Virus record (IMG/VR): IMGVR_UViG_2681813421_000002
Location: 1 to 64,000 of that record
Source: a virus
Taxonomy: Duplodnaviria > Heunggongvirae > Uroviricota > Caudoviricetes
Direction: 5' to 3' (one strand)
Length of the DNA: 64,000 nt
Shown here: in pieces, positions 20,187-57,290 of the stretch
Numbering within the stretch: the first letter of the stretch is position 1
Layout: every line of letters starts with the position of its first letter
The notes under the pieces: model-generated
The model's input: only the letters and a program-made list of their open reading frames with translations
Told to the model about the DNA's origin: nothing
The model's database searches: none
Position numbers and translations under genes: made by a program

Positions 20187-22477
20187 TTCATTATTGCAAT
20201 TATATCGTTAGCAACTACACGTGTTGACGCCTTGCAGGAAACCGACCGTCTGGCTGCCATATGATGTACTTTAAACCCGTTTCCTTCATATAGTTCACGG
20301 ATGTTTGGTGCACCACTATTTGTAATCACTACCTTAGCGCCGCGCTGGTGGGCTTCCACCAATAGAGATACCAGCCGTTTCTGTTCGTCGAAACGGAAGC
20401 TATTTCCTGAATAACTGGTAAACCCTTCTGTATCCGGCAGCGGTTCATACGGCGGATCGCAAAAAATCACATCTCCTTCACCAGCCGCCTCGATGACGCC
20501 AGCAAAGTCACCTGATACAAAGGACGTGTTTTTGAGTACGTCATCAGCCAAAAATGCCTCCATCTCTGCATGTGGGAAGTAGGGCGCTTTGTATTTGCCA
20601 TACCCCACGTTGAACTCGCCATTTTGGTTGTACCGCGTTACGCCATTAAAACAGTGCCGATTAAGGTACAAAAAGGCGGCAGCATGATGTAGCTGGTCAT
20701 ACTTTCCTCTGTTAAATGCCTCACGCACTTCGAGGTAAGCGTCAGCGTTGTTGTAATTTTGGAAAAAACTATATGACAGCGTGACGAGCGAATGTCCTTC
20801 TCGCTGCAATGTCTGATAGAAGTTAATCAGGTCACCGTTAATATCATTAAGCAGGTTGTGGCGAAATCCTGCATTCGTAAATACAGAACCGCCACCAACG
20901 AACGGTTCTATTAACCGCTTGCCGTGTGGTAGATGCTCAAGCACTGTAGGCAACTCTGAGAATTTACCGCCTACCCATTTGAAGATCGGACGCTCATATT
21001 CATCCGGAGTCCGGAGTTTTCTTGTGTAGGTAATGGTATTTATTGTTTTTGGCTGTTTAGCTTCCACAGTCGCAAGAATGCGACACCCAATCCATTGCAT
21101 AACAGGAACTGCCATGCTGTTGCCAATCGCTTTGTAACGCGGCCCGTCAGCAGCGAGCATCGCGGCCTCTTCTTCGCTTAAATCTGGATAGTGATTGCGA
21201 AGGTATGCCAGTTCATCTGAGGAAATTGTTTTACGCTTTTCCGTAGGGATCAACGTATGCCCATCAGGAAAACCTTGCAGCCTTTCACATTCGACAGGGG
21301 TAAGACGGCGGACAGCTACTTCTGCGTTTCTTACTTCATAGCAAACGGCTGTTGGATTTTGAGCCATTAGAGATGGTGAAGTATTCTTAGTTGCAGCATG
21401 TTGTGTACCGCTCATACGCTCAGGAAAAGCTAATGTAACAAGATGCTCATGGCTTTCTTGCTCACGCGCCCGCAATGTACCATGCCCCTCTGACCAAAAA
21501 CCTGCTCCTGTGCTGCTAAAAACGGCAAGGTCAGTGGCATCTTTAAAGTCTCTTGCCTTTACTGTCGATGCGGTTTCATCGTCAATATATTCCCCAAATG
21601 CCGCCATCCTGAAAGCGTTTACGGCTTTCGTCGATTTCATACCGGGGGGCATGTCAGCGTGTAGGCATGGATTTAGGCTTTCGCCACTGATTGCAGCGCC
21701 ATTTGCAATAATGGCGGAAGCGATTTCCTTCTTTTTTCGGCTCGGCGCAATATTCCGGCGCACGCCTTCGAACTCAAAAAGTATCGTTGCGGGATCGAGG
21801 TCTGTTCGAGCACTTGCGACAACAAACACGCGTCGGCGTCGTTGCGCCACTCCGAAGTATTGGGCATCAAGGATTCTCCAGGCCACTTTTCGCTGCGGTC
21901 CATAAATACAACCACACTGCGGCCACTTTGGAGCATGGCAACTGGTTTTGACATCCCACCGCCAGAACGCGTTACTTTTTCGCGATTCAGGTCGAGCACC
22001 TGGTTCGAATGGCGCATCTTCTCCAGCCAATCCGGCAAGGAAACATCCGAAGGCGTTATCTGCCGATGACAAGACTCCTGGGACATTTTCCCAGACGATA
22101 ACGGCTGGTTTGAGAAATGACTCAGCCCGTTTGTCGTCAATTGCATTTGCAAGCTCCACATACTTTAAAGTTAGCGCGCCACGCTCATCATCAAGCCCAC
22201 CACGTAATCCAGCGATACTGAATGCCTGACAAGGTGTTCCCCCGACGAGCACATCAGGGGATTCGATTTCCCCAGCCAGGACTTTTTTGGCAAGTTTTGT
22301 CATATCGCCAAGGTTGGCGACATGGGGCCAGCGGTGCGCAAGAACGGCAGATGGAAAAGGCTCGATTTCAGCAAACCACGCCGGACGCATACCCAACGGT
22401 TCCCAGGCAATGCTCGCTGCTTCAATTCCACTGCAAACTGAACCATATCTAAGGTTAACGTTCTGCTTCACCACCAA
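20183..22477 (-). CDS. dmt: Bifunctional DNA methyltransferase: N-terminal C5-cytosine MTase fused to C-terminal Dam-like N6-adenine MTase
   Basis: N-terminal motifs SGIE/FxGxG-like, PCQ ([11 protein letters not shown]), ENV (ENVPG), [16 protein letters not shown]; C-terminal FVGGGS and DPPY; 764 aa. Confidence 0.85.
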
Positions 22478-46634: not shown

Positions 46635-46706
46635 GCTGCAAAGTGCTGGTGCTTTATGCCTGTGAAGTTTATAATTGTGTACACATAACGAGTACACGAG
46701 GTGTTT

Positions 46707-46928
46707 ATGCAATCCATTAACTTCCGTACCGCGCGTGGCAACCTTTCTGAAGTGCTCAACAATGTTGAAGCCGGGGAAGAGGTTGAAATCACCCGCAGAG
46801 GCCGTGAGCCAGCAGTAATTGTCAGCAAGGCTACTTTTGAAGCCTACAAAAAAGCGGCGCTGGATGCCGAATTTGCATCCCTGTTTGACACCCTGGACTC
46901 CACCAACAAGGAACTGGTTAACCGATAA
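46707..46928 (+). CDS. phd: Phd antitoxin
   Basis: Product from ATG 46707 matches P1 Phd as recalled ([39 protein letters not shown]...). Confidence 0.95.
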
Positions 46929-47308
46929 TGAGGCATATATCACCGGAAGAACTTATTGCGCTTCATGATGCGAATATAAGCCGCTACGGCGGCCTGCCGG
47001 GAATGTCAGATCCGGGCAGGGCAGAGGCCATTATCGGGAGAGTTCAGGCCAGAGTTGCCTACGAAGAGATCACCGACCTTTTCGAAGTCTCCGCCACCTA
47101 CCTGGTGGCTACGGCGAGAGGGCATATATTCAATGATGCCAATAAGCGTACCGCGCTAAACAGTGCGCTGCTATTTCTACGCCGTAACGGTATACAGGTA
47201 TATGATGATCCCGTGCTGGTGGAGCTTGCAGTGGGGGCTGCAACTGGTGAAATCCCCGTATCTTCAGTAGCGAAAAAACTACGTGAACTATATGGTTCCA
47301 ATATTTGA
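46928..47308 (+). CDS. doc: Doc toxin (Fic-fold kinase)
   Basis: Matches P1 Doc as recalled, including Fic motif HIFNDANKR; start overlaps phd stop (TAATG). Confidence 0.95.
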
Positions 47309-47343
47309 AAAGAAGCCCGCTCAACCAGGCGGGCTTCTTACTA

Positions 47344-48438
47344 TCACTCAATGATTTTTTCTGCTGTCAGCCAGCTAATTTCTTGCCTGTCTTTCGGCGG
47401 TTTTAGCATGTGGGCGTATTCAGCGACATTCTCCCACGGAATTGTTTTTGCCCACTCAACGATAGCATTGTGATCTGCAGTGAAGAGTGGAATGGTGTGC
47501 GATTTCAACCATTCTAATGTCGTGACGCCATGTTTTTTGGCGTGGTGCTGCGCATGATGCCGGGCTATCACTCGTAATGGTATTGTCCATTCACTACCAT
47601 CAGGCATCGAAAAGCGCATTGTCTTCGGCATATCTGATTCAAGAACAGCCTCCCTAATACCAGGGAACTCACCAAGAATCATACGACGATAGTCATCACT
47701 ATTTCGCCCGCCATACCTTTCGGCAAAATGATCAAGATATTCTTGGGTAATAAATGGTGAATCCTCCGCACTCAGCTTAATGGCTTTATATACACCACTC
47801 GGATTATCTTCAGCTAAAGCACGTCCATGATGTGAATCATAAAAAAAGCCTATTTCCTCTGGTGACGGAATTGAAGTGAGCAATATGCGTGAATCACCAC
47901 TAGTCATGCTTGCCCACACAATGCTGTATGCCCGATCGCTGATATGTGCGGAATCCACAATAATGAATAAAAGATGGTCGGCGTAGTGACCTGCAATGCT
48001 ATCTTCATAGTTAAGGCGGAAGTTACAAAAGCACATTCCCCAAAATTCATTGAACATCAGACCGCTATCACCGACCTTAAAATACTCAATGATAAAAGGT
48101 TGTTTTTTCAGCAATGCCTCCCAACATTGCCACACATATGCAACAATTCCTCTTTTGCAAACATTTGATTTTGGATAAACAATTACTGTCCGGGAATCAG
48201 GATACATAATCGTATAAAGGGTACTAATAACAGCAAGCACTTGCGGTCGTCCGATCCCATACGGAGTGGTGACAGTAGCTTTTGCATTATTGGGCTGTAT
48301 AGCTTCAACAATTTGTTGTTGCTGGTGGCTTAAATCAATATCAAACAATTCTTTTGCTGCCAGTACCCAATTGTCTTTATATTTCTCCACCAGCGACAGC
48401 CAGCGCGGATCTTTATAAATATTGCTCTTAGTCGCCAT
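47344..48438 (-). CDS. Terminase large-subunit (PacB) ATPase-domain paralogue with degenerate Walker motifs, no nuclease domain
   Basis: About 40 percent identical by eye to PacB N-terminal 270 aa (SHQQQQI, FYDSHH, DNP, SPF, EYGGR); Walker A GHGTGKS replaced by PYGIGRP; Walker B LILDEAS replaced by IIVDSAH; C-terminal 110 aa unrelated; ATG 48438 with AAGGAAG RBS. Confidence 0.6.
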   Translation of the reverse strand: MATKSNIYKDPRWLSLVEKYKDNWVLAAKELFDIDLSHQQQQIVEAIQPNNAKATVTTPYGIGRPQVLAVISTLYTIMYPDSRTVIVYPKSNVCKRGIVAYVWQCWEALLKKQPFIIEYFKVGDSGLMFNEFWGMCFCNFRLNYEDSIAGHYADHLLFIIVDSAHISDRAYSIVWASMTSGDSRILLTSIPSPEEIGFFYDSHHGRALAEDNPSGVYKAIKLSAEDSPFITQEYLDHFAERYGGRNSDDYRRMILGEFPGIREAVLESDMPKTMRFSMPDGSEWTIPLRVIARHHAQHHAKKHGVTTLEWLKSHTIPLFTADHNAIVEWAKTIPWENVAEYAHMLKPPKDRQEISWLTAEKIIE

Positions 48439-49195
48439 CTGCCACTTCCTTAACTTCTTCTTTGGCCTGTTCTGCAATCGCCGCACGGCATTTCGCCCTG
48501 GCTGTAGCGATTGCTTCAGCTCGCACATCGTCTGGAATCGTTGACGTGATATACATATCCAGTTCTTCGGCACGGAATACTGTTTGGTCCAGATATTCGC
48601 GTAGCATCCAGGTAAATTCGAAATCACACGCGATAATCTCTGCGCCACCTTCTGCACCATTTGGGAAATGAATAAATGCCTGTTTAGCCAAACCGATAAC
48701 ACGACATGCGGTTGCCAAAACAGCGACAACCAGGTTTACATTTTCACACGCTACGGGCTGGTTAACGCCGGAGATTACTCCATTTAACTGTCGGTTATAT
48801 GGAAGGTAGTTTGAGATGCGTTCTACGCGCCATGTGCCAGTCAGGCTGCCATTTTTAAATATAATTGGTGTAACGGATAGCCCAAGCTCGCGTATAAGTC
48901 GTTGCGCTATAGCAGGATCATTAAACAGGTCTAATGCTACACATTCGAAAGACTGCGCAAGGGCAAACAGTTCTTCCAGAGAGTAGTCTTTGCCCCTGGC
49001 GGTGATGTAACGACGAACGCCGCTGTCTGCATCACTCCATATAGCTACGCCATGCTCTTCATTCAGCTCTTCATTAAAGCCGAGATACGTCATGATAGTG
49101 CGTTCAATCGTGTCAAACGGCAGTGACATGTCGGCGTTAACAGCCACCAGCAGGCCATTACGCAAGCGGTATTGAATTGTTTTAGTGCTTTCCAT
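48428..49195 (-). CDS. Hypothetical protein
   Basis: 255-aa ORF in operator-controlled operon. Confidence 0.45.
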   Translation of the reverse strand: MESTKTIQYRLRNGLLVAVNADMSLPFDTIERTIMTYLGFNEELNEEHGVAIWSDADSGVRRYITARGKDYSLEELFALAQSFECVALDLFNDPAIAQRLIRELGLSVTPIIFKNGSLTGTWRVERISNYLPYNRQLNGVISGVNQPVACENVNLVVAVLATACRVIGLAKQAFIHFPNGAEGGAEIIACDFEFTWMLREYLDQTVFRAEELDMYITSTIPDDVRAEAIATARAKCRAAIAEQAKEEVKEVADGD

Positions 49196-49201
49196 GTCAA
49201 A

Positions 49202-49642
49202 TCACTCCACAACAAACCAGTCACAGGCCAGCAGGTCGCCAACTGAAGGCACCCACGGAACAACTACACCTTGTGCATTTTTTAAGGCGAAATAAGCACC
49301 ATACGGAACGAGGTCGCCGGGGAAATATCCCTTAATGGCTTCCATTCGTGCCGGGTACTGTCCTTCAGGAACCAGCCAGCAGAATTGGTTTTCGCCGTTC
49401 CACCCGCGTCGAGCAACTTTCTTGCCTTCCTTCAGCCACATCAGCGCGTCTGAAAAGTCGGCTGCTTCAAGGTCGATTTCTTCTTGCTGGGTGGTGATGC
49501 CACCAGCAGAAATAGTTACGCTCCCGGTAAGATTAATCATCACGCCGTTGTCATCCGTAATGATGACCGTGGTTCCATTTTTTTTGTGAGCTTTGTATTT
49601 GGGACGGAACTTAAAAAGCTCTTTCGTTGCCATGTTATTCAT
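49202..49642 (-). CDS. DUF2829-like protein (Tad2-like anti-Thoeris sponge family candidate) with N-terminal extension
   Basis: C-terminal 90 aa FSDALMWLKEGKKVARRGWNG...GDLLACDWFVV matches recalled DUF2829 signature. Confidence 0.45.
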   Translation of the reverse strand: MNNMATKELFKFRPKYKAHKKNGTTVIITDDNGVMINLTGSVTISAGGITTQQEEIDLEAADFSDALMWLKEGKKVARRGWNGENQFCWLVPEGQYPARMEAIKGYFPGDLVPYGAYFALKNAQGVVVPWVPSVGDLLACDWFVVE

Positions 49643-49656
49643 AGTCTTTTCTCTGC

Positions 49657-50151
49657 TTATAACTTTTCGTACTGAAGCGGTGAACGCTTAATTTCAAAGT
49701 GGCCTTCCGATGTGCTACCAAAGCCACCAGCACCACGCTCCGTTTCGTTGAGTTCCTCAACCTCGACTAGTGAGACTTGTTCAACACGCTCAAAAATTCC
49801 TTGCATGACAGCCATTCCAGGCTTGAGACAAACGCCTTCCCCGCCGGGATCAGTAATCAGTTTTGCCATGATTTCGCCGCGATAATCGGAGTCGATAATT
49901 CCTACGCAGTTAGCCAGGCGAGTATGTTTTTTGCAGCCCAATCCTGATCGCGGATAGAGTTTCAGACACCAGCCGGGCGGGATCTCCATAGCCAGTCCGG
50001 TATACACCCACCAGCTTGAGGAAATTGCACCATTGCTATCGACGCATGGTTTTATTTCAACAGCCTCAAAATCCATCGCCGCCGATCCGGAGGTGGCATA
50101 AGCTGGAAGTTTTGCTGCCGGATGTAGGCGTTTCACTTTTACGTAAATCAT
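49657..50151 (-). CDS. dut: dUTP diphosphatase
   Basis: Trimeric dUTPase motifs (GLGCKKH..., GIIDSDYRGE, GERGAGGFGSTS). Confidence 0.8.
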   Translation of the reverse strand: MIYVKVKRLHPAAKLPAYATSGSAAMDFEAVEIKPCVDSNGAISSSWWVYTGLAMEIPPGWCLKLYPRSGLGCKKHTRLANCVGIIDSDYRGEIMAKLITDPGGEGVCLKPGMAVMQGIFERVEQVSLVEVEELNETERGAGGFGSTSEGHFEIKRSPLQYEKL

Positions 50152-50624
50152 TGTTTTTTAGCTCTCTGCGTGAAGGTGTAAACCCGACGTTTGATATGTG
50201 GAACGGTAGGAACAGGAAGACAGGAACTTTCAATAACTCCTTGCTCATCCAGCGATCGCACCGCCCGCAAGAACTGCGACGTGTCGCCGCCAAACTGGCG
50301 GGCATAGGTGCTGCCGTTATGAAGTATTTGAGCTATTACCCGAGTTTTTGTCTGGCTGTCACGATATGCGAATAGCCGCACGGCCTCTTCTGGCGCAATC
50401 GCTAACTGATAGCCTTTCCCGGCACGGTGTCGAATGAATCCATGCGCCAGTAGGTTTTTGAGTTCGTTACGAGTGCGAACAGATCCGTAACCCAGGAAGT
50501 GTGGATTGATAACGACTGGCTTAAACCATTCCGTAGGTGCTTTAGCTAATAGAGCTAACAGCTTCCCGGATAATTCTGGATAGGAAGACGGGTAACAATT
50601 CAGAGATGGGTAATAAGTTTTCAC
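50148..50624 (-). CDS. Hypothetical protein
   Basis: 158-aa ORF, overlaps dut start by 4 nt. Confidence 0.45.
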   Translation of the reverse strand: MKTYYPSLNCYPSSYPELSGKLLALLAKAPTEWFKPVVINPHFLGYGSVRTRNELKNLLAHGFIRHRAGKGYQLAIAPEEAVRLFAYRDSQTKTRVIAQILHNGSTYARQFGGDTSQFLRAVRSLDEQGVIESSCLPVPTVPHIKRRVYTFTQRAKKQ

Positions 50625-50965
50625 CGACGCCCCCTTGCAGGATATCGACCTGCATTAGTATCCGGTGCAATAAAGCCGGTAGTGGGGCGAGTGAAAGCGA
50701 GATTAATCTTCTCGACCATAGTGCGATAATTTTCCTGATAGTGGGCCAGGAGTTTTTCGGCGGCAATGATGGTTACTTTCCGGACGTAGCTTTCTGCTTC
50801 CTCCAGATTTCGCCAGTTTTTTTCGAGGGTAAACACAGGGACGGCCTCAAGCCCGGTCATGATGCCGAACACAACGACAGCATGACTGTTCTTAACACCA
50901 GCGGCGAAGGTTACGGTGTAACCATCCACCTTGAAGCGTCTTGATTCCGTGATTTGACTCTGCAA
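50621..50965 (-). CDS. Hypothetical protein, first gene of operon
   Basis: 114-aa ORF directly downstream of operator motif at 51023. Confidence 0.45.
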   Translation of the reverse strand: MQSQITESRRFKVDGYTVTFAAGVKNSHAVVVFGIMTGLEAVPVFTLEKNWRNLEEAESYVRKVTIIAAEKLLAHYQENYRTMVEKINLAFTRPTTGFIAPDTNAGRYPARGRR

Positions 50966-51022
50966 AGCACCCTCCTAAATAGGCGAGGGTACTTTACAGC
51001 AAAGATGTTAATCTAAAAAGAT

Positions 51023-51038
51023 GTGTTAGAAATTTAAT
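51023..51038 (-). promoter_or_regulatory. Operator-like motif (AAATTTCTAACACA on minus strand)
   Basis: TCTAACA core between cre 3' end and operon 50965-47344. Confidence 0.5.
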
Positions 51039-52067
51039 TTATAAATCCATCAGGCGGCTATTAGCCCCCACAGACACGCCGCCACGGCGCAGATACCGCA
51101 TAAGTGTTTCCGGTTTCTTCCAGGTTCCTTCCTGCATAATCTCCACCATAGAGACCTGCTTTTCAGCCATATCGATAGCGGCCCCGACGCGTGCACTATG
51201 CCCGGTCCACGTCCGGTATCTTCCTTTGTTTGGCGTAGCATCTCCTTTATTCAGCAACACCCAGGCGTCGCTGAATATTTTCTCCATTGCAGGTGCAGTA
51301 AGGGGCGTTATCGTGATCCTGGCCTTATTGCTACGGTGTATCGGCGGGAACAGCACTGCGTCAGGATGTTCGCGAAGCCCGGAAACATCCAGCCAGTCAT
51401 TCAGCACAGCGGTAGTGCGACGGGAAAGCACCTTATCAAGCCCGGCGGCGGTCGTTATTGTCTTCGTGTGTGAAATATGTAGCGTGACAGTGTCACCTGT
51501 TTGGTCCAGATCTCCTACACGAATACGCGAGATTTCCGACATACGCATCAGCGTATTGTATGCAACAAAGAGAAAAGCCCGGTTGCGCAGGTCCACCAGC
51601 CGTTCAGACCTGGACAACAGGACGTCGAGCAGTTTCAGATCGTCCCACCGCAGCGGTATAGCCTGGCCTGTTCGTTCGCCTTTTTCAGTTGCCGCTTCGC
51701 GCCGGATGCGCCGCATAGCCAGAGAAACACTTTTATCATCCGAAAGTGGTGGAAGGCCACAATGCGAAAGCAGCATGTTCAGCATGGCGTAGTGCTTATC
51801 AATGGTGGTCGAAGCCAGATCGGCATCATGCAGCTGAAGAAAATACTCGCGGGCCATTTCTGGTGAGATCGGAAACCAGGCAAGCTGGCGAGCGTGACAC
51901 CAGCGCGCCCAGGAATGAAACACCAAACGGAGGTCGCGCAGAGTATTCGGCGCATAAGCTCCCTGGTCATTCATGAACCGCATAAAGTTTTCTGCGGCTT
52001 CCTGGTACTCTTTGCCAATGTTGCGCAGAAAACCACCGGAACTGCCAGAGATAATTAATTCACCCAT
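51039..52067 (-). CDS. cre: Cre-like tyrosine site-specific recombinase
   Basis: 342 aa colinear with P1 Cre as recalled (VSLAMRRIRRE, IRNRAFLFVAYNTLMRMSEISRIRVGD, GHSARVGAAIDMA, catalytic Tyr region LMRYLRR). Confidence 0.9.
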   Translation of the reverse strand: MGELIISGSSGGFLRNIGKEYQEAAENFMRFMNDQGAYAPNTLRDLRLVFHSWARWCHARQLAWFPISPEMAREYFLQLHDADLASTTIDKHYAMLNMLLSHCGLPPLSDDKSVSLAMRRIRREAATEKGERTGQAIPLRWDDLKLLDVLLSRSERLVDLRNRAFLFVAYNTLMRMSEISRIRVGDLDQTGDTVTLHISHTKTITTAAGLDKVLSRRTTAVLNDWLDVSGLREHPDAVLFPPIHRSNKARITITPLTAPAMEKIFSDAWVLLNKGDATPNKGRYRTWTGHSARVGAAIDMAEKQVSMVEIMQEGTWKKPETLMRYLRRGGVSVGANSRLMDL

Positions 52068-52218
52068 GAAACTATTTGACCTCTATATACAGATGACGCT
52101 ACGCGAAAAATATAAAAATGACAGGGTAGCTATAAGTTAATTTTCAAAATACAAGCCTTTGATTCGAGGCACGTATTTTCAGTGATGTCAACACTGTTCA
52201 TCTACACATGATTATAGC

Positions 52219-52252
52219 CTAACTTTAAATAATGCCAATTATTTAAAGTTAT
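52219..52252. other. lox-like recombination site CTAACTTTAAATA-ATGCCAAT-TATTTAAAGTTAT (13-8-13)
   Basis: 12/13 inverted-repeat arms flanking 8-bp asymmetric spacer, about 150 bp upstream of cre start; outer arms share AACTT with loxP. Confidence 0.7.
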
Positions 52253-52433
52253 AAAATGCCGATTTTTTTTAATCCATCATAGATTGATGATGACCAGTAA
52301 CACGTTGCCTTCATGGTCTTTAATTTGCGAAGTGTGGTTTCTACGGTTGGTTTTCTAAAATTGATGACAAAAAATCACAGTTCGATCCTTTACTCACCCT
52401 GTTATTCGACATAAATTTGTCATAGTAATTTTA

Positions 52434-52450
52434 TGTTAGAAAACTAAATC
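52434..52450 (-). promoter_or_regulatory. Operator-like motif (TTTAGTTTTCTAACATAA on minus strand)
   Basis: TCTAACA core immediately upstream of 52462 gene. Confidence 0.5.
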
Positions 52451-52461
52451 GAGTAGGAATA

Positions 52462-53499
52462 ATGAGTAAGAAGTCGATCGAGAAAGAGTACAAACGGTTC
52501 CTGCAAACCGCTGAACGGTGGAAAGAGCTGGTGGTCGCAAACTCTGTTTTCCATGATACCAGTTATGCTGGCGAGGAATTCCGCCATGTTGCATTAACGC
52601 ATGACCAAAACATATTAGAAGAAGCTGAAAAATGTCTTGCTGAATGGAAAGCCTTCGTTGACATGTGCCGCGATGCCGACGGCAAAGCGTCGAACATTGT
52701 TGAGTCTGTATATTCTCCGATCCCATTCATCATTGAGGACACCAATCAAAGCACGCATGTCGTTGTGCAAAGCGCTACAACAACACGTACATTTACACGT
52801 GAACAATTGCTAAAAAAATACGACAAAATCATAAAGAAAAGCCTGAAAAATAGGGTTTTTTCTCAAATCGTAGGTGCTCTTGAAGAAGAACAGCGCTTCT
52901 TTGAAGCTGAGCCTGAAGGCGAGATCTACCGGGCGCGTAAAGAGGCATATACAGATGTTGTGCTGACAACAAACATCGAAGGCAGCAATGCCCTTTCTCG
53001 CTTTAGAGTTGGCGCACATGGCGCATTGGTTTTCGCAAGACTACCGAAGACAACGATCCCCGTTGTCAATAATGTTGGTGAACGCCGGAGCATTACAATT
53101 TATTCTGGCGTCGAATCGGTACCATGCAGCCTTCTCGGCGATTTTAACTTATATCGTGTTCGTGACCTGGAAAAACACCAGCCAAGCTACGTTGCGAAGT
53201 CGTACATCTTAAGGAACATCGATATTCGCAATGAAAGCCTTAAGCAGAAATCCGCTAAGATGCTGGAGGATGCCGATCCGGCTATTCGCCATATCATTGA
53301 ACGTAAGATACGTACATCACGTGAAGCAATGGCAAGGTTGGATAAAATGGATCTGGAATTGTTAGACGTAATGATGGCCTCTGGAGACGACCTGACCGGC
53401 ATTAAACTGAATGAAGCTCGTAAAAAATACGGCAAAGCAATCGAAGAACGTTACGGATACACATTCCCCCAAACGCAGTACGCCGCGAAGCTCTGGTAA
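52462..53499 (+). CDS. Hypothetical protein at the P1 c1 position (candidate immunity/regulatory protein)
   Basis: 345-aa ORF between lox-cre and pacB, convergent with pacB, operator motif in leader; no recognised similarity to P1 C1. Confidence 0.45.
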   Translation: MSKKSIEKEYKRFLQTAERWKELVVANSVFHDTSYAGEEFRHVALTHDQNILEEAEKCLAEWKAFVDMCRDADGKASNIVESVYSPIPFIIEDTNQSTHVVVQSATTTRTFTREQLLKKYDKIIKKSLKNRVFSQIVGALEEEQRFFEAEPEGEIYRARKEAYTDVVLTTNIEGSNALSRFRVGAHGALVFARLPKTTIPVVNNVGERRSITIYSGVESVPCSLLGDFNLYRVRDLEKHQPSYVAKSYILRNIDIRNESLKQKSAKMLEDADPAIRHIIERKIRTSREAMARLDKMDLELLDVMMASGDDLTGIKLNEARKKYGKAIEERYGYTFPQTQYAAKLW

Positions 53500-53527
53500 T
53501 CACAACCGGCCCCGCATCGCGGGGCTT

Positions 53528-55036
53528 TTATATATCCAGATCCGGCATTTCGATATCCGCCAGAACCTGATCTCGGAAAGTTGCCATTTCGGCACCAATA
53601 TCTTCATTAGCAGGCACATAGTCCACCAGCATAGTGAAGCAGTAGGTATCCCATCGGTCAGGCGATTTGATGTTTAGCTTTTGCCGCATGTGCTCTTTGC
53701 GCATCATCGCCATTTTCCCTTCCTCATTCAGTAAAAAGGGGATTTTTGACGCTTGCTCTGCCGTTTTAGGGTCACTGTCTATCCGCATACGCCCTGACTT
53801 TATGGCATCACGCGCCATAATATTTGCGTAGGCACGCTGATTAACAAATCGCTCCCTGTCTTTGTTCGCAAACATGGGTTTTCCCCACCGAATACGTACC
53901 GGGTTCGCACCACGACGTACCAACTGCGCACACGTATCAGAACCAAAACCATCGGCATCAACCGCGATTGTTATATTCGGGTATTTTTCCGGCGTACATT
54001 CGTTATATATAAAGTCAGCAAAGGCCAATGGGTCCATAGTGCCAGGCATCTCCATTACCTTAAAGTTAACAACGCGCCGCTTATCCCTGTGACCAGATAC
54101 CTTGCAGATGTTGAGGACCGACTTATCTCGCCCATTACCAACGTCAGCCGTTGCCACCCATCCCCAGTTTTTCTCCAACAACACCTTGCGGCGAGCAGCG
54201 CGATCGCATTCATCACGACCAAGCAAATAGCCGTTAATTTCTCGTGGGAACTGACCAAGCACCTTGACCATATACTCAATAGAATCGCGCCCACCATATT
54301 CCAGAAGCTTCTGCCTGATGAATTGTGGTGTGACGAACGGTGATTCTTCCGAGTTAAGAACAATTGCTGTCCAGATCCCTTTCGGGTTGTCTGGGGTTTT
54401 TGCTTGAGAATGGTGCGAATCGTAGAAATAACCACTTGGCCTTGTTGGCTGGGATAGCATCAACATCCGGTTATCTTCTTCAGTAAGAGCACCGGTCATT
54501 ACGCCGATCGCCTTATCAGATATACCAGATGCTTCATCCAGAATTAGAAGCAAATGTGCCGCATGTTCCCCCGCCAGCGCTTCTTCGTTGCCGAGTCGAT
54601 AACCTTTGCAGAGAACTTCCCAAATCCCCTTACGGGAGCGCTCATAAAACATGGTGTCAGAGAGGACAAAATAGGTCTGCAACCACCCATGACGCTTAAC
54701 TGCATTCGCCCAATACTGTTTAACGTATTTGAATACGCCTGTTTTTACCTGGCCTATCTTGTTAGCAACAATGATGACACGGGCATCGGGGAACAGGATC
54801 ATAAAAATCAACAGCAACATCGCGGTAAGGGACGACTTCCCAGTTCCGTGTCCGGACGTGACGGTCGTCCTACTCCCCGTTTCCTGCACGGACTGAATGA
54901 TCTGCTGCTGCTGGTGGGAGGGGAACATCCCAAAAATATCGACAACAGCCTGGGTAAAGTTGTAGCGGTATTTGATTACCATATCGCGCCAGCGTGGATC
55001 GCTGGTGACGCATTTAATCTTGCGCCCTCCAGCCAT
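53528..55036 (-). CDS. pacB: Terminase large subunit PacB
   Basis: Walker A SGHGTGKSS, Walker B LLLILDEASGI, C-terminal nuclease-domain length; directly downstream of pacA. Confidence 0.85.
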   Translation of the reverse strand: MAGGRKIKCVTSDPRWRDMVIKYRYNFTQAVVDIFGMFPSHQQQQIIQSVQETGSRTTVTSGHGTGKSSLTAMLLLIFMILFPDARVIIVANKIGQVKTGVFKYVKQYWANAVKRHGWLQTYFVLSDTMFYERSRKGIWEVLCKGYRLGNEEALAGEHAAHLLLILDEASGISDKAIGVMTGALTEEDNRMLMLSQPTRPSGYFYDSHHSQAKTPDNPKGIWTAIVLNSEESPFVTPQFIRQKLLEYGGRDSIEYMVKVLGQFPREINGYLLGRDECDRAARRKVLLEKNWGWVATADVGNGRDKSVLNICKVSGHRDKRRVVNFKVMEMPGTMDPLAFADFIYNECTPEKYPNITIAVDADGFGSDTCAQLVRRGANPVRIRWGKPMFANKDRERFVNQRAYANIMARDAIKSGRMRIDSDPKTAEQASKIPFLLNEEGKMAMMRKEHMRQKLNIKSPDRWDTYCFTMLVDYVPANEDIGAEMATFRDQVLADIEMPDLDI

Positions 55037-56400
55037 TAATCATCCTCCGGCGGTTCTATCGCGATATCTTCATCTCCGGCGTCATACCCTGCATCAGATG
55101 CATCATAATCACCGTAAATTTCAGCCGTTGCCGAAGGGTCAATATCCAGCTCTTCGTCGTTGGCCTCGAATTCTCCAGCTTTACGCTCGCCATTGCGGTC
55201 GTAATCTCCGCACCCCAATTCTTCAACAATGGTTGCCACATCCGCCCGGCGCTCTGCCAGCCATTGCGGATGGTTAGCCTGAAGCGTCGCAAACTCCCTT
55301 GCCTCTTTGTCCAGCTGTTCATCATCAACATCATTGACGTCAGAAACAGGTGGTTCGAGAAGAGTGATAGCTTTCGCCGCGCGCGCCGCGAGGATAGCCG
55401 GGACGCTGACCCCCTGGCGCTCGATGTATTCAGCAACACCGATATCATCCAGTTCCTCGCGCTCACGCATACGTATAGCGGCGGCGATAACTCTGGCTGC
55501 GCGTGCGTCAGCGCCAATGCGATATTCAATCTCTTTGCCACGCTGTTCGGCCTGTAGGCGTGCTAATTCGAGTTTTTCTCTGGCCTCAGCCTCTTTGAAT
55601 GCTTGCTGGCGAGCGCTCTGACGAAGCTTTTCATCCCCCTGTCGCAGCTTTTGTTCGGACTGATATATAGCTGCCAACCTACTGATAAAATCATTCATGT
55701 AGTAGGCAGCGTCACTGATTAGACCGAGAAGGCGCTGCCCAGGGTGCATTCCTTCTGGCTCTTTATCGCCCAAGGCGTCTATTTCCGCCTGTAGACGTTC
55801 GGCCTCCTGATCAACAATGCTTTGATACTGAAGTGCGCGCTCTTGCGCCATTTGAATTGCTAACCGCAGGTGTTCTTCTGCGCCGTTCTTCATCATATCG
55901 CGAGCCACATTCGTAGTGGGCAATGTGGCACGCTGCACAGCACCGCCAGGGATCATTGCTGAAGATCCCTCAATTTTTGGGGCGCTTTTATCTTCTTCGG
56001 GGATCATTTTCGCCATTTTTTCGCGCAATGATCTCCTGACAGATTCTTTTATCTCATTGTTATTATTTGCATTATTTTCATGATCCGAAGTTTTCTTTCT
56101 CGGCATACTTCGGAAAGAACCTGCGCCCTGCGAATTGTCAATTTCTGTAAATTTTGTTTTTTCTGCACCCTCTTCCAGCTTTTTTGTTGCTCTTCCCGCC
56201 CGTTTTTTTTCAGGTGATTTGGTGCTTTTTTTTGTTGTCTTTACCTGCGACCGCACCTCATTTTTTTTCATATTGAGATGCTTTCTGGCTGTATTGAAGC
56301 TAAGGCCATGCTCCTCACAGTATTCCTTTACAGTGATCCCTTTTTCTTCACGCAACGCTATAAAGCGGGCGCGGTGCTCCTCCCAATTAACCAGACTCAT
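55036..56400 (-). CDS. pacA: Terminase small/pac-recognition subunit PacA
   Basis: N-terminal HTH (ITVKEYCEEHGLSFNTARKHL), acidic C-terminus; contains GATC cluster. Confidence 0.75.
   Translation of the reverse strand: MSLVNWEEHRARFIALREEKGITVKEYCEEHGLSFNTARKHLNMKKNEVRSQVKTTKKSTKSPEKKRAGRATKKLEEGAEKTKFTEIDNSQGAGSFRSMPRKKTSDHENNANNNNEIKESVRRSLREKMAKMIPEEDKSAPKIEGSSAMIPGGAVQRATLPTTNVARDMMKNGAEEHLRLAIQMAQERALQYQSIVDQEAERLQAEIDALGDKEPEGMHPGQRLLGLISDAAYYMNDFISRLAAIYQSEQKLRQGDEKLRQSARQQAFKEAEAREKLELARLQAEQRGKEIEYRIGADARAARVIAAAIRMREREELDDIGVAEYIERQGVSVPAILAARAAKAITLLEPPVSDVNDVDDEQLDKEAREFATLQANHPQWLAERRADVATIVEELGCGDYDRNGERKAGEFEANDEELDIDPSATAEIYGDYDASDAGYDAGDEDIAIEPPEDD
55945..56090 (-). other. 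Candidate pac site: 5 GATC within 135 bp inside pacA
   Basis: GATC at 55951, 55964, 56002, 56030, 56082; P1 pac is a Dam-site cluster within pacA. Confidence 0.4.
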
Positions 56401-56789
56401 AAAGCAACACCACGCTTTTTAACGGCGGCATTCCACAGCTTATTCGCCATGTCCACCAGCTCTCGTTGCTCTTTTCGCGCCTGTTCGACTGATTTCCTGC
56501 TACAGTTTTTAACCAGTAAGCTACCGTATTCAGGCGTGCGCCCGCGCACCTTGAACTGATATCCGTTCAGGCCATGCAACCAGTATTTCCGTGGGTAAAC
56601 ACGATCATCAAGCTCACAAATAGCTCGGCTTGACCGCACAAAATGCCGAATGATGTTGGTTACACTTACGCGTGAAACATGAAGGTGAGGATATTTTTCT
56701 TTAGCTAGAGTGGTGATTTCGGTGACTGTCAGATAGCAGTCAGCCCTAATCATGATATCCGCAATTTCTGCGCTGCTGATATGCTCCAT
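56397..56789 (-). CDS. lpa: Late promoter activator Lpa-like protein
   Basis: 130-aa ORF immediately upstream of pacA with operator motif in its leader; assignment by position. Confidence 0.5.
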   Translation of the reverse strand: MEHISSAEIADIMIRADCYLTVTEITTLAKEKYPHLHVSRVSVTNIIRHFVRSSRAICELDDRVYPRKYWLHGLNGYQFKVRGRTPEYGSLLVKNCSRKSVEQARKEQRELVDMANKLWNAAVKKRGVAL

Positions 56790-56868
56790 TAATCCCCCAG
56801 GCAGGAAATGACCGAGGGGATGATAATGAGAATGTTATTTCTGTATAGACTGGCAAAAAGTTGGTTAT

Positions 56869-56898
56869 ATTAGAAAATTAATTCCATTCATCTAACAC
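56869..56898. promoter_or_regulatory. Operator-like motifs (ATTAGAAAAT and TCTAACAC) upstream of lpa
   Basis: Two partially inverted TCTAACA-type cores in 100-bp leader. Confidence 0.45.
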
Positions 56899-57290
56899 TA
56901 CCAGCGAGATAAGCGAACGACGTGTTTTACCTTAGCGATCCACTTACCACGTGAGTTATTAATTACGGCCTGCGCCACCTTTAAGCTGACTTCAAAATCA
57001 GCCTTACGACCATCAGAATCCACCAGCGTTGCACCGTCTATTTCCGGCAGGCTTAAATAATCCTGTTCTACCTCTAATGGCATTGACGGCTCTCTGAATG
57101 GTGTCAATTGCCGAGCTTTCCAGATAAAGCGAACTCTCAATCCCCTATAAGCCATTACCATGTAGCCTGTTATCGTGCTCTTATGGCCTGCATCAGTACG
57201 CGCAGCATTACACGATACAATCTTACAGGTGACGATATTCCACTCCACATTGGATACTTCGTGAATGCTTAATTTTGTGGTCTCGTACAT
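56898..57290 (-). CDS. Hypothetical protein
   Basis: 130-aa ORF. Confidence 0.45.
   Translation of the reverse strand: MYETTKLSIHEVSNVEWNIVTCKIVSCNAARTDAGHKSTITGYMVMAYRGLRVRFIWKARQLTPFREPSMPLEVEQDYLSLPEIDGATLVDSDGRKADFEVSLKVAQAVINNSRGKWIAKVKHVVRLSRW

Follow-up and report, generated by a model that had tools for sequence, protein, structure and literature searches.

A recombinase gene and an inverted repeat lie beside c1

The DNA analysed here, a stretch of 64,000 nucleotides that we refer to as the window, carries a gene for a tyrosine recombinase of the Cre family (dre), a short inverted repeat (rox) upstream of this gene and 152 bp from its ATG and, across the repeat, the prophage repressor gene c1 (Table 1). 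The initial annotation had recognized the recombinase gene as an orthologue of cre, and this assignment to the family holds. The product matched Cre chains in the PDB with E=1e-68 over residues 22-341 (phmmer), a match that spans the N-terminal and catalytic domains, and contains the Phage_integrase catalytic domain PF00589 with a score of 60 bits, above the cutoff of 27.1 (Pfam). With P1 Cre it shares 41% identity over 321 aa, in line with the 37% published for Dre and Cre (PMC3553980). The catalytic set R175, K202, H290, R293, W316 and Y325 is intact at 6/6 positions and aligns with Cre R173, K201, H289, R292, W315 and Y324. Residues R175, H290, R293, W316 and Y325 are those given as catalytic for Dre (PMC4777119), and K202 is, by alignment, the lysine equivalent to Cre K201.

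Table 1. Coordinates of the recombination module and of the features around it in the window
Feature	Position	Strand	Length	Remarks
dre, Cre-family tyrosine recombinase	51039-52067	-	342 aa	uninterrupted ORF of 342 codons
rox, Dre recombination site	52220-52251	+	32 bp	corresponds to the misc_recomb feature 'rox' of AY753669; TAACTTTAAATAATGCCAATTATTTAAAGTTA
13-8-13 reading of rox	52219-52252	+	34 bp	CTAACTTTAAATAATGCCAATTATTTAAAGTTAT; arms complementary at 12/13 positions
Sigma-70 promoter-like element	52211-52238	-		points into dre; 11/12 consensus match
Imperfect 13-8-13 inverted repeat/hairpin	52146-52179			between rox and the dre start codon; AAAATACAAGCCT / AGGCACGTATTTT
c1, D6/P7-type prophage repressor	52462-53499	+	345 aa	divergent from dre across rox; collinear with AY753669 c1
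pacB, terminase	53528-55036	-		D6 annotation, PHROG terminase family; 56% identical to P1 PacB
pacA, terminase	55036-56400	-		D6 annotation, PHROG terminase family
PacB-like paralogue	47344-48438	-	364 aa	between doc and the isaA-like gene; phrog_5902 over full length
Tad2-like (Thoeris anti-defence 2) gene	49202-49642	-	146 aa	Pfam domain, E=6e-23
Second Tad2-like gene	~57.3-57.9 kb (L025 4203-4778)		191 aa	beyond lpa; Pfam domain

A lox-like site had also been proposed, about 150 bp from the gene and with perfect architecture, and the 34-bp string on which that proposal was built is present at the distance given above. The site is a palindrome as claimed but not a perfect 13-8-13 one, since an outer C faces an A; its true symmetry is 14-4-14, with the arms TAACTTTAAATAAT (52220-52233) and ATTATTTAAAGTTA (52238-52251) around GCCA, as returned by the repeat finder and as rox is described in the literature (PMC4777119). 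The 32-bp core is identical at 32/32 positions to the rox feature of AY753669, as are the surrounding 42 bp, and is base-for-base equal to wild-type roxP as printed, 5´-TAACTTTAAATAATGCCAATTATTTAAAGTTA-3´ (PMC4777119). No other perfect inverted repeat with arms of at least 14 nt and a gap of at most 8 nt occurs in the 64-kb window, and 100 locally shuffled windows contained none, indicating that the rox palindrome is not due to chance. The site is present in a single copy and its half-site solely as the two arms; a further half-site match at 22160 carries two mismatches and is consistent with chance. Scanning the window for repeats and half-sites revealed no arm-type repeats around rox.

The pair corresponds to Dre/rox of phage D6

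When positions 50900-52500 were compared with GenBank phage records by megablast, phage D6 alone matched, its immC record at 97.6% identity, and the features annotated under the match are the tyrosine recombinase dre, the crossover site rox for Dre and the phage repressor c1. The resemblance to Escherichia (Salmonella) phage D6 (AY753669, MF356679) extends well beyond the site. The DNA is 97.6% identical over 7.3 kb, leaving ~2.4% of nucleotides that differ, and the distance from rox to the dre ATG is likewise 152 bp. The recombinase is of the same length as D6 Dre (AAV84949/ASR76376; the same protein sequence in AY753669 and MF356679) and identical to it at 338/342 residues (98.8%), the substitutions being S2G, T253I, R275G and S342L. 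At the DNA level 27 codons differ from D6 dre, 23 of them synonymously and 4 non-synonymously, a ratio that points to purifying selection on dre. The very protein sequence of the window can be found in several E. coli accessions at NCBI and in one UniRef entry, and the 90%-identity protein cluster to which it belongs has 289 members, the exact sequence among them.

The initial annotation had presented the pair as new. Alignments covering both Cre/loxP and Dre/rox show instead that the site is a known lox-type site, rox, and the identity of rox together with that of Dre removes the claim to novelty. On these comparisons the pair is an allele of D6 Dre/rox and no separate system; the recombinase, the site and the exact protein allele are all already known. 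Since site, orthology, synteny and catalytic residues all agree in silico with a D6-type Dre/rox, we conclude that the module is almost certainly the Dre/rox site-specific recombination system of a D6-like E. coli plasmid prophage, the D6-lineage counterpart of Cre/loxP. The outcome is a clean negative in that neither the recombinase nor the site needs new characterization. The D6 pair was reportedly first presented by Sauer and McDermott in 2004.

The suggestion that a heterospecific Cre-like pair may have value as a tool is correct for Dre/rox, which is a widely used tool beside Cre/loxP as an orthogonal system. That value has thus been realized already, Dre/rox having been standard for two decades. 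The reference Dre recombines rox in E. coli, in both excision and co-integration, without any added phage accessory factor (PMC3553980).

Gene context is that of a D6-like plasmid prophage

Gene context had been taken as a further sign of novelty, with the recombinase gene between doc and pacB and away from c1 and cra. A P1-type cra is indeed missing and doc does lie ~4 kb to the left, but c1 adjoins rox, and the arrangement is the known one of D6. The D6 records give the order lpa, pacA, pacB, c1, rox, dre, orf2/orf117, orf3/orf116, dut, orf114 and isaA-like; the order lpa-pacA-pacB-c1-rox-dre-orf2-orf3-dut is common to D6 and the window, with pacA and pacB completing the pac-c1-rox-dre block. 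The window is collinear with both D6 records from ~48455 to 57146 at ~97.6-97.8% identity. The difference in context from P1 is therefore the published D6 arrangement and no novelty.

The c1 assignment draws on several lines of evidence. The domain PF27008 (Phage_P7_repressor_C1) is precomputed on the identical gene in a related locus (L025), the gene falls in phrog_1678, and its product shows weak but significant similarity to P1 C1 (21% identity, E=2e-8). A local Pfam scan of this 345-aa ORF to the right of rox gave no match. The reading that no c1 lies beside rox was considered and is ruled out by the D6 annotation, PF27008 and the similarity to P1 C1.

The nature of the replicon is indicated by an E. 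coli contig, JPXJ01000019.1 (GCA_000773555.1, 86,585 bp), that is base-for-base equal to window positions 41039-62067. This contig is a D6-like plasmid prophage with dre at the window coordinates, and it carries phd/doc; for D6 itself, the prophage is described as a circular plasmid (PMC6799933; D6 record).

Several neighbouring features depart from D6 or merit mention in their own right. The phd/doc addiction module (46670-47298) is ~92-93% identical to D6 vs ~97.7% in the neighbouring blocks, a drop that again points to a mosaic, modular build of the plasmid prophage. D6 lacks the adjacent segment, 47299-48454, at this place. This segment holds the 364-aa ORF listed in Table 1 as a PacB-like paralogue, whose product shares 37% identity with the N-terminal ATPase part (~260 aa) of PacB, the terminase large subunit, and 33% with P1 PacB. 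An assignment of this ORF as P1 pdcB was rejected, given no detectable similarity to P1 PdcB vs 33-37% identity to the PacB N-terminus. On the opposite side of dre from rox, three genes further on (past orf2, orf3 and dut), lies the 146-aa Tad2-like ORF; this gene and the second Tad2-like gene beyond lpa are both candidate anti-defence genes of the phage-plasmid.

Natural Dre alleles differ beside an invariant rox

The locus is common among plasmids of enterobacteria. Matches were found in 144 PLSDB plasmids, 123 of which hold at least 80% of the 1.6-kb query; these 123 come from Escherichia, Salmonella and Shigella, and are mostly non-mobilizable and ~90 kb in size. Among 5426 complete E. coli genomes, 124 have some match and 106 at least 80% of the 1.6-kb query. 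The exact 32-bp rox is also present in 20 IMG/VR contigs. A scan for exact rox in a contig collection with one genome per species gave zero matches. Given the IMG/VR contigs, the PLSDB plasmids and the E. coli genomes just listed, this zero is no sign of rarity; the E. coli representative in the collection evidently lacks a D6-like plasmid.

These loci bear on the significance of the four substitutions. The differences from reference Dre are real, and they might have produced a functionally distinct variant in which T253I and R275G in particular, both in the C-terminal domain, alter specificity or efficiency and so provide a new tool. Residues 253 and 275 flank the segment aligned with Cre helix J (Cre 258-262), and directed-evolution work on Cre has shown that this segment influences specificity. 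Within it, however, none of the four substitutions affects the positions corresponding to Cre R259 and E262, and R275G restores the residue of Cre at the aligned position, G275 of the window protein corresponding to Cre G274. The adjoining cognate rox, moreover, is unchanged, which argues against co-evolution of the site. Among 13 complete IMG/VR Dre alleles that lie beside an exact rox, 9 equal D6 at all four positions, 3 have T253I and 1 has S342L, so that T253I and S342L each occur separately in nature next to an identical site. Three more loci encode Dre proteins 93.8-98.2% identical to that of the window, and even the alleles with ~6% residue differences retain the same rox. Neither R275G nor S2G occurs in these 13 alleles; the one argument for their neutrality is consequently the recurrence of the exact window allele, which sits on 14 contigs (natural E. 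coli plasmids), JPXJ01000019.1 among them. The constancy of rox across natural Dre diversity argues that the window's substitutions do not change specificity; most likely all four leave it as it was, and we consider a functionally distinct Dre very unlikely. Conversely, natural Dre diversity beside an invariant rox could guide the choice of tolerant positions for engineering.

The placements in E. coli speak to another alternative, in which the protein is a phage integrase and the site an attP that serve chromosomal integration rather than plasmid resolution or cyclization. The Pfam and PHROG labels do read 'integrase', and 3/129 placements are on chromosome records. The other 126/129, however, are on ~90-kb plasmids, the site is a simple symmetric 32-bp core of the lox type without arm-type repeats, and the contig is D6-like with phd/doc, D6 being a circular plasmid prophage (PMC6799933), leaving this role extremely improbable for the pair. 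That dre or rox is an inactive relic in the window's lineage is just as improbable, considering the full-length ORF with its six catalytic residues, the excess of synonymous over non-synonymous changes against D6 and a rox that is invariant among diverged relatives.

Predicted reaction and role

With Dre/rox as the preferred reading, the plasmid-prophage contig carries an intact Cre-family gene and, next to it, a single copy of precisely the site on which Dre is known to act. The conserved active site, taken with what is established for Cre, allows the reaction to be outlined (PMC4777119). One Dre monomer would bind each rox arm, and thus two each rox, and a tetramer would synapse two rox sites. 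Cleavage by Tyr325, close to the edges of the central region, would leave a 3´-phosphotyrosyl link; exchange of one strand pair would then yield a Holliday junction, which exchange of the second pair would resolve. The asymmetric GCCA would give rox its direction. By analogy with P1 Cre/lox, the single rox copy would let Dre resolve plasmid dimers to monomers, favouring stable inheritance, and Dre/rox probably also circularizes infecting phage DNA, which is terminally redundant. D6-like plasmids have been credited with resolving multimers through this recombinase and site (PMC6799933).

A promoter-like element overlaps rox

We also noted a sigma-70 promoter-like element that overlaps rox and points into dre. 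Its -35 hexamer, TTGGCA (52238-52233), comprises the four spacer bases of rox and the arm base on either side, its -10 hexamer, TATAAT (52216-52211), lies 3 bp outside the left arm of rox, and the 16-bp promoter spacer between them is made up of the rox left arm and the 3 flanking bp (GCC). On both strands of the 64-kb window this is the sole sigma-70 match of at least 11/12, and 2.9% of shuffles of the dre-c1 intergenic region yield such a match. The 10 bp abutting rox, GATTATAGCC(T), are kept in 27/27 related loci (GATTATAGCT in two), including five in which the next 30 bp differ at about half of positions. A promoter at rox is unannotated in both D6 records and may already be described in the primary D6 or Dre papers. 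A precedent for a promoter at or before a recombination site exists in P1, where transcription from the annotated promoter P4cre, immediately upstream of lox, crosses the site in the direction of cre.

From this arrangement and its conservation, it is tentatively possible, though we lean against it, that rox also serves as a portion of the dre promoter, in which case bound Dre would occlude and repress its own promoter; the level of Dre would then be tied to occupancy of rox. Transcription initiation at rox could, in turn, modulate recombination. Altered kinetics or specificity of the four-substitution allele is the less likely of these two proposals, and a very improbable one. A second element is the imperfect inverted repeat or hairpin in the dre leader region. 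On the + strand a run rich in T comes after its core, GCCTTTGATTCGAGGC, and divergent loci retain this core. The element may serve as an operator, as a leader structure or to terminate antisense transcription.

Rox marks a boundary of c1 immunity types

Homology among D6-like contigs breaks at the first base to the right of rox (52252 onward). Beyond this base we found three unrelated intergenic types (loci including L005, L011, L013, L015, L018 and L022), all of which lead into c1 alleles with 80-90% protein identity vs 92-99% for dre and pacB. L022, for example, shares 99% identity with the window in Dre and 98% in PacB, and just 90% in C1. This pattern places rox at an edge of a mosaic segment that carries the c1 immunity type, where it marks a sharp boundary of the immunity types among D6-like phage-plasmids. 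The edge possibly arose by Dre-mediated exchange between co-resident phage-plasmids.

Comparison with known systems

With respect to D6, the differences include the four Dre substitutions and the PacB-like paralogue, which the window has and D6 does not. With respect to P1, the likeness covers the recombinase family, the fold class and the catalytic residues, and both sites are palindromes of the 34-bp class with ATAACTT-type outer arms that lie, in a plasmid prophage, with the c1 immunity region on one side and the recombinase gene on the other. The sites themselves are distinct, as the initial annotation had stated of the arms and spacer. The rox 34-mer and loxP, ATAACTTCGTATA-ATGTATGC-TATACGAAGTTAT, share 22/34 bases, with 9/13 and 10/13 in the arms and 3/8 in the spacer, such that three central arm positions and 5/8 spacer positions of loxP are unlike rox, and the symmetry of loxP is 13-8-13 vs 14-4-14 for rox (PMC4777119). 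The surroundings differ too: in P1, lox is separated from cre by cra and from c1 by coi, imcB and imcA, and the window is without all four. Judged by these alignments, the window pair belongs to the Cre family, yet is not Cre/loxP itself. VCre/VloxP, SCre/SloxP, Vika/vox, Nigri/nox and Panto/pox likewise consist of a short palindromic site and a tyrosine recombinase of the Cre-like type; their proteins and sites differ from those found here, and the exact identity of the site with rox removes them from consideration.
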